Position numbers and translations under genes: made by a program. DNA of 64,000 nt from contig OX597821.1 in NCBI GenBank assembly GCA_951406725.2, positions 78,306,001 through 78,370,000 on the forward strand. Direction: 5' to 3'. Below the pieces are notes generated by a model. It was not told the DNA's origin, did not search any database, and saw only the letters and a program-made list of their open reading frames with translations. The DNA is from Octopus vulgaris (lineage: Eukaryota). This document shows positions 1 through 5,289 of this stretch, piece after piece. Numbering within the stretch: the first letter of the stretch is position 1; each line of letters begins with the position of its first letter.

Positions 1-2784
1 GAACTGTTTCATTCAAGAGAAATCTTCAGGAAGCTAGTTAACAAGAATTGTATTGGCATTTATACATTTAGGCAGGTTTAAAGGGGTGTTGGTGGGGGAC
101 TTTTTGGGGGTAGGCATAGCGCAAAAAATCATACTTGGGGGAGTGGTCAAGGAGTCAGTGTTAAATTAGATAGGAGAATAAATAAAAAATAAAAAATAAA
201 AAATAAAAAATAAAAAATAAAAAATAAAAAATATAAAAAAAATATATAAAAAAATAAAAAAATAAAAAATATATATATATATATATATATATATATATAT
301 ATATATATACAGGGGGAATAGAGTTTTAGGTAAATAAGGAGATTCTCACTTATACCTATGCACATATGTATACATATATACACACGCATACAAACATATA
401 TACATATACATACACACATACATACACACACATATATATATATATATACATATATATACACTTACACATACATATACATATCTACACATACACATATATG
501 TATACATACACACACTCACTTGCATACACGTATACACACATGTATATATACACACACGACCACACATACATATACACACAGAAAAATATATATACACATA
601 CACACACATACTCACATACACGCATACACACACAAATCCACACACACACATGCACACACAGCACACTAGTCCCTATATACACATATATACACATACACAC
701 ATATATATATACACACACACATACACATACATACACATATATATATATACATACATATACATACATATACATATATATATACATATATATATATATATAT
801 ATACATATATATACATATGTGTACCTATGCATACCTACACATACACACATATATATATACATATACAAATACAGACCCATTCCCTAATTTTAATTTTATT
901 ATCTTCGTTTATTACTTTTGTTATCTTTGGCCGCTTGGTCACAAACATCTTGGCTATGACAGCCAGACCATTTATCCGTCTACTGGAAAACAAGCACTCA
1001 TTCACTCACGCACACTCTTTAGCACGTACACTCACTCATTCGTACACTCATACGCATACACGCACGCACGCGTTATATTCATACATACATCTACATACAT
1101 TCACGTATATACACATACGTACGCGTACCTACAGATTCATGTCTACACTCTTAGAAGGCTAGTCTATACATATACACCAATAAATATAAATACACACACA
1201 TACATGTACATCTACATACAAATACATACATGTATATATATATATATATATATATATATATATATATATTCATACTTACATGCATACTCAAAAAATAAGT
1301 AAATAGTAAAATATATATACGCGCAGTTATTCATACATGCATACTCAAAAAATAAATATTAAGTATATGTACGTGCAGTTACCTATTATATAGACGTATT
1401 ATAATACGGATTATACATATAATAAACTTACACACATAGATATATATATATATATATATATATATATATATATACATATATACACATATATATATATATA
1501 TATATACACACACATACATACACCTACATATACACATACACACATACATACATATATATATATATATACATACACACACACACATACACATACATATACA
1601 TACACATACATACATATATATACATACTTACACATGTACATATAAATATACACATAGATAACTCTACGTACCTACATATACATAAACACACGAGCGTACG
1701 CGTATATGTACATATACATATACCCATGCACACGCATATATATATACATACATACATACACATACACACACATACACATATATATACATACACATATATA
1801 TACATATATATATATATATATATATATATATATATATATATATATACACACACATATACATACACACATACATACACACACATATATATACATGTGTGCA
1901 AACATACGTACATTCTCATACAAGCACACACACTTACACACATATATATACATACACACATACATATACACATACATATGCATACACACAAATATACATA
2001 TATACATACATACATCTATACATATATATACACACACACACACACACACACACATACATATATATATATATATATATATATATATACACATATATATATA
2101 TTTTTTACATACATACACATATATACACACACACACACATAATACATGCGTATAATCCTACTATACATGTACATACTTATATCTCTACATACTCGCATAT
2201 ACATATATATATATATATGTATGTATATATATATTTTTCTGTGTGTATATGTATGTGTGGTCGTGTGTGTATATATACATGTGTGTATACGTGTATACAA
2301 GTGAGTGTGTGTATGTATACATATATATGTGTATGTGTAGATATGTATATGTATGTGTGAGTGTATATATATGTATATATATATATATATATGTGTGTGT
2401 ATGTATGTGTGTATGTATATGTATATATGTTTGTATGCGTGTGTATATATGTATACATATGTGCAGAGGTATAAGTGAGAATCTCCTTATTTACCTAAAA
2501 CTCTATTCCCCCCTTTATATATATATATATATATATATTTTTTTTTATTTTTTTATTTTTTTATATATTTTTTTTATATTTTTTTATTTTTTATTTTTTA
2601 TTTTTTATTTTTTATCTTTTATTTTTTATTTTTTATTTATTCTCCTATCTAATTTAACACTGACTCCTTGACCACTCCCCCAAGTATGATTTTTTGCGCT
2701 ATGCCTACCCCCCAAAAAAGTCCCCCACCAACACCCCTTTAAACCTGCCTAAATGTATAAATGCCAATACAATTCTTGTTAACT

Positions 2785-2835
2785 AGCTTCCTGAAGATTT
2801 CTCTTGAATGAAACAGTTCTAGTCCTGTAGAAGCT
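2785..2835 (+). ncRNA. Type I hammerhead ribozyme motif
   Basis: AGCTTC-CTGAAGA-T[TTC tctt GAA]T-GAAA-CAG ttctagtc CTG-TA-GAAGCT: perfect 6-bp stem I, CUGANGA/GAAA core, 4-bp stem III, GUA cleavage triplet (2827-2829). Stem II is weak (3 bp with a U-U closure). Confidence 0.7.
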
Positions 2836-4078
2836 CCTTCTATATAATAAATTAATTTTACTCTGCTATGTATTGAGTACCTTATTTACTGTGGTTAACC
2901 CCGAATCAACCCGGGACCTACATATATATATATATATATATATACATGTATGTATTTGTATGTAGGTGTACGTGTATGTGTGTGTATTTATATTTATTGG
3001 TGTATATGTATAGACTAGCCTTCTAAGAGTGTAGACATGAATCTGTAGGTACGCGTACGTATGTGTATATACGTGAATGTATGTAGATGTATGTATGTAT
3101 GAATATAACGCGTGCGTGCGTGTATGTGTATGAGTGTACGAATGAGTGAGTGTACGTGCTAAAGAGTGTGCGTGAGTGAATGAGTGCTTGTTTTCCAGTA
3201 GACAGATAAATGGACTGGCTGTCATAGCCAAGATGTTTGTGACCAAGCGGCCAAAGATAACAAAAGTAATAAACGAAGATAATAAAATTAAAATTAGGGA
3301 ATGGGTCTGTATTTGTATGTGTATATATATATATATATATGTGTGTATGTGTAGGTATGCATAGGTACACATATGTGTATATATATATATATATATATAT
3401 ATATATATATATATATATATGTGTATGTATATGTATGTGTGTGTATATATGTGTGTATGTGTATATATATGTGTATATAGGGACTAGTGTGCTGTGTGTG
3501 CATGTGTGTGTGTGGATTTGTGTGGGTATGCGTGTATGTGAGTGTATGTGTGTGTATGTGTATATATATTTTTCTGTGTGTATATGTATGTGTGGTCGTG
3601 TGTGTATATATACATGTGTGTATACGTGTATGCATGTGAGTGTGTGTATGTATACATATATGTGTATGTGTAGATATGTATATGTATGTGTAAGTGTATA
3701 TATATATATGTATATATATATGTGTGTGTATGTATGTGTGTATGTATATGTATATATGTTTGTATGCGTGTGTATATATGTATACATATGTGCATAGGTA
3801 TAAGTGAGAATCTCCTTATTTACCTAAAACTCTATTCCCCCTTTTTTTTTATATATATATTTTTTTTTTTTTTTATTTTATTTTATTTTTTTTAAATTTA
3901 TTTTTTATTTTTTTATTTTTTAATTTTTTTATTTATTCTTCTATCTAATTTAACACTGACTCCTTGACCACTCCCCCAAGTATGATATTTTGCGCTATGC
4001 CTACCCCCAAAAAAGTCCCCCACCAACCCCCTTTAAACCTGCCTAAATGTATAAATGCCAATACAATTCTTGTTAACT

Positions 4079-4129
4079 AGCTTCCTGACGATTTCTCTTG
4101 AATGAAACAGTTCTAGTCCTGTAGAAGCT
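4079..4129 (+). ncRNA. Type I hammerhead ribozyme motif (second tandem copy)
   Basis: Same fold as 2785-2835 with core CTGACGA; the only difference within the motif is at the variable N7 position. A third copy on the - strand (35->1) is cut by the window edge. Confidence 0.7.
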
Positions 4130-5289
4130 CCTTCTATATAATAAATTAATTTTACTCTGCTATGTATTGAGTACCTTATTTACTGTGGTTAACCCCGAAT
4201 CAACCCGGGACCTACATATATATATATATATATATATATATATATATATATATATATATATATACGTATATATATATATATATATATATATATATATGTA
4301 TATATATATATATACATATATACATACATATATATATATATATATATATATATATATATATATATATATATATATATATATATATACATATATATATATA
4401 TATATATATATATACATATATGATGTGATATCTAATATGATATACGAGAAGGTTTCACGAAAGGCCTGGTTGGAGGTCAAAACTTCCGTGTTCTTTCACA
4501 TGGCTTAGAAATACCGAAGGACCGCTTCAATAAGGGTGCGCATCGGATGGGAATATTTTGAATAAAATCGTAATTAACTGATCCTCCTCTATTTTCTTTT
4601 AACCAAAGCACCCACATCGTAAGGGTATGTTGTTTGAAATATGTGAAGTTTATTAAGCGTTTACACGTTTTTCTTTAAACAATGATTTCTTTAAGCGGTT
4701 TTTTTTGAATTTCTTAAAAACAAAAATCTGAAAGGAATTTTTCTCATTTTCTTGTTTTGATCTTAAATGGTTTTAACTTTTTTAAAACTCCTTTTGACTT
4801 GTCCGCATCTTGATATGGTGTTACAAAGCTACACTCCCGCCACACAATCAATATCCACTTCTGAACAACAAAGTCCACAAATAAACCAATCAAAACAAGT
4901 CATATACCATTATACATTTGGTAACGGAAGTATTCTCAGTCCGTATAGTATATTGACTATTTTCCTTTTACACTTGATAGGATTTTTTCCTTATTGCTGT
5001 CGGAAAAGGTGTGGCAAAAGCTACATACAGTAGGAAGTTTGGATATTAATGAAATGAAGGTGTGGCTTCTTTTGTATTCTGGGATGAAGTCAGTGCTGCA
5101 AAATATTTTCAGCAAGACATTGCAGTTTTGCATTTCGACATTTACCCTTTGAGATTTTGAATCCTCTGTCTTTTAAATTCCCTTAATTTTTTCTTGACAT
5201 TTGTTAGATTTATTCATAGATCATACAATTATTTTGTATTTTCTCTTTTATTTATCAATTCCCGATCAATAAATTTCATTAAATTTTAT

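Follow-up and report, generated by a model that had tools for sequence, protein, structure and literature searches.

Probably nested copies of a Hydra-clade Penelope-like retrotransposon in Octopus vulgaris and a probable RNA start at the first base of their predicted hammerhead ribozyme

Two probably nested insertions at the window edge

We analysed a stretch of Octopus vulgaris DNA (the window: 64,000 nucleotides, positions 78,306,001 to 78,370,000 of contig OX597821.1, assembly GCA_951406725.2) whose left edge carries hammerhead ribozyme motifs in tandem and inverted copies of a microsatellite-rich unit. The best explanation overall, and a probable one on the sequences compared, is that one copy of a Penelope-like retrotransposon is nested here in another, and that the capped RNA of this element starts at the first base of the hammerhead.

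Two type I hammerhead-shaped motifs are found on the forward strand, at 2785-2835 and 4079-4129, with a spacing of 1,294 bp. Both have the core CUGANGA/GAAA, the U10.1-U11.1 form and a GUA triplet; stems I, II and III measure 6, 3 and 4 bp, and loop III has 8 nt. The predicted cuts fall after 2829 and after 4123, and the sole difference between the motifs is at N7 (A vs C). The motif scan and the alignment agree with the original prediction in these coordinates, in the spacing and in the single difference, and the third motif that it had placed on the minus strand at the window edge proved intact when the upstream DNA was added. A fourth hammerhead lies about 1.05 kb upstream of the window. 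The predicted tandem and inverted anatomy was recovered as well: 2922-4113 repeats 1255-1 in inverted orientation (91.5% identity), 2218-2819 repeats 602-1 in the same manner (95.6%), and 2218-3012 is a direct repeat of 3553-4308 (90.8%). The unit is indeed rich in microsatellite, but its copying is less faithful than was claimed, since the run lengths vary from copy to copy at this locus.

Copies of this family end in (TA)n at about +67 (short end) or +137 (long end), counted from the first base of stem I. Mapped onto natural copies, the window segments resolve into two insertions. The outer one consists of an inverted short-end arm (window -1115..-922), a forward piece (-924..-31) and the remainder at 2922-4215; the inner one consists of an inverted short-end arm (-32..2217) and a forward long-end arm (2218-2921), and interrupts the outer one at an (AT)n run which, in natural copies, stands directly before that block. 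The short end that closes the inverted arm of the inner insertion lies in (TA)n, 32 bases outside the window on the upstream side, and the deletion of about 700 bp in this arm is also present in another locus (L033). Three arms could be aligned over 27 informative columns, of which the outer arm alone differs in 17, the inner forward arm in 9 and the inner inverted arm in 1.

The tail-(AT)n-body junction behind the 1,294-bp spacing has 1 match in the 2.8-Gb genome and the native junction has 94; therefore the 1,294-bp monomer is almost certainly a one-off product of nesting. The retrozyme monomer of 1.3 kb that was originally proposed as the mobile unit is not supported: its junction is unique, and the ribozyme-to-ribozyme period of sister copies is 4,784 bp in tandem loci L074/L075. 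The window "dimer" is best read as an insertion of one copy into another, at an (AT)n run within the latter; the 3' region of the element supplies (AT)n targets of its own, which would explain the nesting. Because a TATA box precedes hammerhead 1, a 1,294-nt RNA could be cut out at the window locus alone. By itself this locus is ordinary nested transposon debris.

The parent element and its clade

A search of the genome with the core 2640-2920 gave 1,653 candidates (the 40 scored were 98-100% identical), and sister loci confirmed the anticipated link of this type I hammerhead unit with a Penelope-type reverse transcriptase (RT): among the first 20 large loci, L047 and L050 have RT and GIY-YIG frames that precede the unit and share its strand. 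A further search with the C-terminal 224 amino acids of this open reading frame (ORF) gave 24,296 candidates, and the 150 scored were 95-100% identical. The order ribozyme, leader, ORF, long 3' region, ribozyme was seen in 20 loci chosen from the C-terminal matches for long frames or tandem spacing, and in the full element a TATA box stands before the second ribozyme. The ORF adjoins the unit without a break, and in the same orientation, in L047, L050, L051 and L074-L093. In L074/L075 the frame is open over 713 aa, and 183 nt separate its start from the first base of stem I; other tandem ORF matches are spaced about 5.2-5.7 kb apart. The 3' region measures 2,031-3,637 nt (28 measurements, one interrupted by an inverted copy), consists to 42-62% of alternating purine-pyrimidine tract and contains 6-23 (AT)6+ runs, as compared with 4% alternating tract, by a similar measure, in the remainder of the window. 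The mobile unit thus carries microsatellite, as had been foreseen, and the window unit corresponds to the last third of a microsatellite-rich 3' region of about 3 kb. That the window unit holds no ORF is also correct (tblastn of the family ORF against the window gave zero matches), but it is the 3' end of an ORF-bearing element and not a non-coding mobile unit.

Read by motif, the ORF has YRDD at 347 and VY..YIG at about 587-605. It also has RWR at 38 (a conservative variant of RWK), DKT at 116, CxCX5C at 567, CxxC..E at 667 and N..CxH at 686; CX2-5CxxC was without match. The CCHH motif of the endonuclease is absent, with a single Cys between the VY and YIG strands by eye. The canonical hammerhead in a pseudo-long terminal repeat (pseudo-LTR) and the insertion into (TA)n agree with what the Hydra clade requires. 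The clade is described as generally short (<3 kb), and here the length of the 3' region alone marks a variant. Judged by these sequence features, the element is a young autonomous Hydra-clade Penelope-like retrotransposon, a variant longer than the published members; the placement was made by motifs, and the reference Hydra families were compared by eye. Some ORF homologs carry PF00078 or PF01541.

With the Hydra clade (PMC8557442) the octopus element shares the single ORF with C-terminal GIY-YIG, the RW[K/R], DKT, CxCX5C, CxxC and CxH motifs, (TA)n targets, a type I hammerhead that is often of the U10.1-U11.1 form, tandem and inverted insertions and an optional tail. It is longer, about 4.4-5.9 kb against consensus lengths of 1,080-3,045 bp, because of its microsatellite-rich 3' region. 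Loop III has 8 nt as opposed to 0-3 nt in the clade table and in 55/55 relatives, and the tail is about 70 nt instead of 30-40 bp. Both the protein and the ribozyme of Hydra-1_Obim differ from those of the octopus element by eye. In the accessible text of the clade study no start site was mapped, and a list of recently active Penelope families in an octopus gives, in its accessible part, no detail on a ribozyme start (PMC13282606). The endonuclease end of another Hydra-type family of the same genome was observed at L041:254-838 (+).

The 5' edge of the copies and the probable route of insertion

Copies of the family pile up at the ribozyme. Among 100 position-ordered arms, 71 start at -2..+7 relative to stem I, 3 start at -12..-10 and 26 extend further upstream; these arms are the first core matches by position on contig C1 (82 fetched, 14 listed native and 4 listed perfect fold-backs), and arms truncated inside the core escape the count. 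The first base of the TATA box is at -29 from stem I in 75/77 contexts, and the spacer between box and ribozyme varies in sequence by subfamily while its length is constant. In one subfamily the 9 upstream bases are kept in 1,921 of 3,126 stem-I arms, where point changes add to the loss. The base before +1 in 64 arms joined to AT-rich DNA is G in 36, T in 11, C in 9 and A in 8, and G is found at -2 in 4/64 (Fisher p 6e-10). This tally was made by hand on the 100 listed of 141 matches, namely on arms directly abutting AT-rich DNA. The base preceding the 36 arms that start at +2 is G in 12, T in 23 and C in 1, and no G was seen at -1 among 38 distinct native arms. Because the TATA box at -29, the pile-up at +1 and the non-native G occur together, it is likely that the first base of ribozyme stem I is the start of the capped RNA. 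The octopus junctions resemble in this respect those of full-length L1 and SVA insertions, where an untemplated G was attributed to copying of the cap (PMC3287187).

The relatives of the element provide a further comparison. In 78 metagenome loci with related ORFs we found 55 ribozymes (in 46 loci), 50 of them with 70 nt upstream and 43 after removal of near duplicates. TATAWA falls into one 8-nt interval (-44..-37 from C3) in 9 of the 43; in shuffled sequences the mean of the best interval was 2.4-2.8 and 0/1000 reached 9. Six consensus sequences of novel Hydra elements are published; by eye, a TATA-like run 32-34 nt before stem I is present in two of them, Hydra-2_Amil and Hydra-1_Ajap, and no clear run of this kind is visible in the other four. 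In a single case, L237, the contig of a relative starts 8 nt before the ribozyme core and 28 nt after the TATA-like motif of the 3' copy, and this contig start coincides with the predicted transcription start.

In LTR retroelements, the minus-strand strong-stop DNA is primed near the RNA 5' end and runs off at the capped start. There the primer is a tRNA, whereas nicked target DNA would be the primer of the octopus element, and the run-off product itself would be inserted, usually as a head-to-head pair. The promoter of Drosophila virilis Penelope likewise lies within the pseudo-LTR (PMC2377424). A rotifer Penelope also has a putative TATA box and palindromic inverted junctions, but that box is a prediction for one copy (PMC3846280), whereas the octopus box lies upstream at the fixed -29 position with the copies piled at +1. 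In the literature covered, where subscription papers are mostly missing, we found no mapped ribozyme start, cap-derived G or strong-stop in Penelope-like elements.

The downstream ends are equally regular. The 82 arms examined are divided into 41 long-ended and 41 short-ended ones, and one long and one short end are paired in 40/41 close fold-backs. The genome holds 648 perfect fold-backs in which the AGCT of stem I is the turning point. Subfamily markers differ between the two arms in 3/41 fold-backs, and the arms of a perfect fold-back at G000:C1:112392607-112392636 differ at N7, as if they came from the RNAs of two subfamilies. The idea that the fold-backs are one amplified mini-element was rejected: the joints vary and at least 4 subfamilies are involved. 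Independently assembled contigs of other runs have loose ends at these same boundaries and at the fold-back joint. Two internal RT starts that bound the tail are shared with Poseidon PAc of the green anole, where they were demonstrated in vitro, as are the cut and extension on both strands, the AT-rich targets and the uncut RNA as main template (PMC11167929). The RT starts of Poseidon PAc lie within the ORF and its ribozyme overlaps the start codon, whereas both ends lie here in the 183-nt leader; the RNA 5' end and the inverted joint are left unaddressed in the accessible part of that paper. Separately, loose ends of run X11 on L074:6519-6531 sit on antisense molecules at C-runs; they resemble what we take to be a template-switch adapter, which suggests an RNA library, but strand invasion is the probable cause.

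The exact 28-nt core pattern has 5,479 matches in the genome as opposed to 0 for the reversed control; therefore the hammerhead motif exceeds chance. Across subfamilies the core and the stems are kept, N7, loop II and loop III are variable, and no compensatory pair changes were seen. An extended stem I, noticed by eye in the window subfamily, was dropped as it is absent from the other subfamilies. The U-U form (U10.1-U11.1) occurs in 22/55 ribozymes adjoining related ORFs in metagenome contigs and is common in the published Hydra-clade table (PMC8557442). Arms that start at the cut site beside AT-rich DNA number 62, as compared with 27 at a control site 8 nt upstream, and about half of the 62 are fold-backs that 6-nt microhomology explains equally well; in one fold-back (L189/L190, G000:C2:62516258-62516306) both arms start exactly at the predicted cut, with an 11-nt AT spacer. 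Such starts are weak support for occasional cutting, and we lean towards a ribozyme that cuts a minority of the RNAs. Low cleavage in vitro was described for animal Penelope ribozymes (PMC4209133).

The route that we propose would begin with a TATA-driven capped RNA starting at the first base of the ribozyme. The endonuclease would cut both strands of a (TA)n target, each cut end would prime reverse transcription at the leader site +67 or +137 on mostly uncut RNA, and RT would proceed to the capped 5' end and copy the cap as G; there is good reason to expect that this part is right. Two short cDNAs would next be joined in head-to-head orientation, through the AGCT palindrome in stem I or through microhomology, which would give the fold-backs of about 200 bp, or a short cDNA would jump to another template and give tandems. 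For these joins and jumps our confidence is lower, though we find them fairly likely. The partners may at times come from two RNAs, because the subfamily markers of the two arms disagree in 3/41 fold-backs. In biased examples, +1 was seen joined to leader or ORF sequence, as after a template jump. Longer arms might originate in two ways, by copying of a read-through tandem RNA or by transfer of the short cDNA to the copy of its sequence at the 3' end, and the element would provide its own targets through the (AT)n runs of its 3' region.

Several observations weigh against this explanation. The extra G is missing from 28/64 arms, and it could come from untemplated C addition instead of a cap copy, although such addition at the template end would likewise need the RNA 5' end there; a one-base snap-back of the cDNA on stem I yields the same letter. 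The octopus TATA box, at -35 from C3, lies just outside the -44..-37 interval of the relatives, 34/43 of which are without strict TATAWA in that interval, and the promoter of D. virilis Penelope is internal, TATA-less and associated with an intron (PMC2377424). The material from other runs consists of contigs, which are uninformative on start, strand or level, and none is recorded as RNA. The nine private differences of the inner forward arm exceed the expectation for a single template. Pfam and PDB searches of the ORF gave no significant match, and an Rfam search of positions 1-8000 gave 121 matches at E<=1, with the hammerhead absent from them. With flanks, the hammerhead is not the minimum-energy fold (z-scores -1.41 to 0.24), the pairing probability of stem I is <=0.05 with 40 nt upstream and 0.0-0.47 from +1, and exact cut-site starts with a non-native base are few (9/62, and 2/27 at the control site).

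How far do other explanations account for the same data? One would argue that the 1,294-bp unit is a non-autonomous retrozyme whose monomer is released by double self-cleavage, circularises and is copied as such: two same-strand ribozymes stand 1,294 bp apart with a TATA box before the first, both RT start sites are within the monomer, and the same family yields a 271-bp ribozyme array elsewhere. However, the defining junction occurs once in the genome, the block order elsewhere runs on into the 3' region and the ORF, both insertions show the standard long and short ends, and published animal retrozyme RNAs have about 170-400 nt (PMC7229834) as opposed to 1,294 nt. We consider this reading very improbable, and a 1,294-bp retrozyme as a family is already largely refuted. 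It could also be that the element is the same, but RT stalls at the ribozyme or the cDNA snaps back on stem I, the TATA box being incidental. The stop does coincide with a helix edge and the AGCT palindrome, and a snap-back would add C to the cDNA, which is G on the top strand. A snap-back, however, predicts G and then G, A, A, and GG is seen in only 1/36; it does not predict the G before arms starting at +2 (12/36), arm starts do not cluster at the further palindromes that exist in loop III and upstream, and the fixed -29 TATA box is left unexplained. A stall or snap-back is unlikely, if less so than the retrozyme.

The head-to-head arms could instead be attributed to self-priming on an antisense transcript, as for rotifer Penelope (PMC3846280), and palindromes at inverted junctions are common in the octopus as well. 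Yet the two outer ends lie at fixed positions in the leader, in agreement with RT starts on the sense strand (PMC11167929), the different subfamily markers on the arms (the three fold-backs of 41 and one listed perfect fold-back) suggest two templates, and the extra G is located at the sense 5' end; the antisense route has very little to recommend it. Least credible of all is an assembly artefact of a microsatellite-rich palindromic region. Small indels are clustered in some short arms, but private differences are present in all four arms, the ends obey the family rules, and independently assembled contigs show the same boundaries and fold-back joint. The nested element with a capped RNA start at the ribozyme is the explanation that we retain.

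A ribozyme array, other features of the window and outlook

At one locus on the contig of the window (L124, G000:C8:91475100-91483400) the family forms an array of about 31 units, mostly of 271 bp. Of the unit junctions 26 are direct and 5 inverted, and the array lies between a long end and a short end in (TA)n. The units span -45 to about +229 and include the TATA box, the ribozyme, the leader, both ends and the first ORF codons. The array has the retrozyme trait of tandem, retrozyme-sized units that each carry a type I hammerhead, and its structure would agree with the rolling copying of an RNA that had been cut and closed. A 227-bp unit is found twice, at a distance of ten units, and the repetition of this 10-unit block suggests duplication at the DNA level as well. 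Animal non-LTR retrozymes (PMC7229834; 10.64898/2026.07.22.740005) are type I hammerhead repeats related to Penelope pseudo-LTRs, like this array; they are amplified monomers, whereas the window unit is unamplified and part of an ORF-bearing element.

Further features were observed in the window. A candidate for another type I hammerhead, not related to the first ones, lies at 31037-31107 (-); its stem I has 6 bp, stem II is long and stem III palindromic. The motif scan gave a weak hammerhead-like match with a poor stem II at about 20300-20359 (-). Frames for a LINE-like endonuclease and RT at 13662-16428 (-) belong to a family shared with L036 and L038. A 232-aa frame at 50406-51101 (-) resembles, as we presume, the RT thumb of another Penelope-type element. 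Tandem and dispersed repeat units of about 183 bp (8592-9447, 20952-21275, 39274-39707 and 53379-53973) presumably resemble an octopus short interspersed element. The features of the nested locus are collected in Table 1.

Table 1. Coordinates of the nested insertions and their parts in the window
Feature	Position	Strand	Remark
Inverted arm of inner insertion (element 3' region)	1..2217	-	deletion of ~700 bp separates two blocks
Third hammerhead, first 35 of 51 nt in window	1..35	-	remainder upstream, intact
TATA box of third hammerhead	58..64	-	first T 29 nt before stem I (sequence and spacing rule)
Forward arm of inner insertion, 5'-truncated, long-end terminus	2218..2921	+	
TATA box at -29, putative promoter	2756..2762	+	
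Hammerhead 1, type I, Hydra-type U10.1-U11.1, 8-nt loop III	2785..2835	+	2785 = putative transcription start
Tail of inner insertion (ORF 5' leader in full-length copies)	2836..2921	+	
Short-end site ~2851 (+67), long-end site ~2921 (+137)	inside tail 2836..2921	+	putative RT starts
(AT)n run, internal to element 3' region	2922..2942	+	probable target of inner insertion
Rest of forward arm of outer insertion, long-end terminus	2922..4215	+	other parts at window -1115..-31
TATA box at -29 of hammerhead 2	4050..4056	+	
Hammerhead 2, predicted cut after 4123	4079..4129	+	N7 = C private among four arms at locus
Tail of outer insertion	4130..4215	+	
Host (AT)n microsatellite beside outer insertion	4216..4421	.	

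The part that deserves pursuit is the inferred transcription start at the ribozyme with run-off at the cap. Pseudo-LTR regeneration and head-to-head inversion were stated as open questions (PMC2377424, PMC3846280), and the role of the ribozyme in Penelope-like elements was called unclear (PMC8557442). Here the likely RNA 5' end is recorded in thousands of young copies by the TATA box at -29, the pile-up at +1 and the extra G, and this record turns the three questions into simple assays. The element also offers a retrotransposon that carries kilobases of its target microsatellite and so seeds the sites for its insertion; in the 271-bp ribozyme array, moreover, the unit can be derived from the parent element.

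More tentatively, and in our view less probably than not, the Hydra-clade Penelope elements may follow an LTR-like strong-stop route with the hammerhead as terminal repeat. The RNA would start at the first base of the ribozyme, target-primed reverse transcription from the leader would run off at the cap, and an obligatory jump would follow to the ribozyme copy that self-cleavage makes at the RNA 3' end. If this is true, failed jumps would be the fold-backs, misdirected jumps would be the partial tandems and the retrozyme arrays, and the strong-stop jump would be the means by which pseudo-LTRs regenerate.

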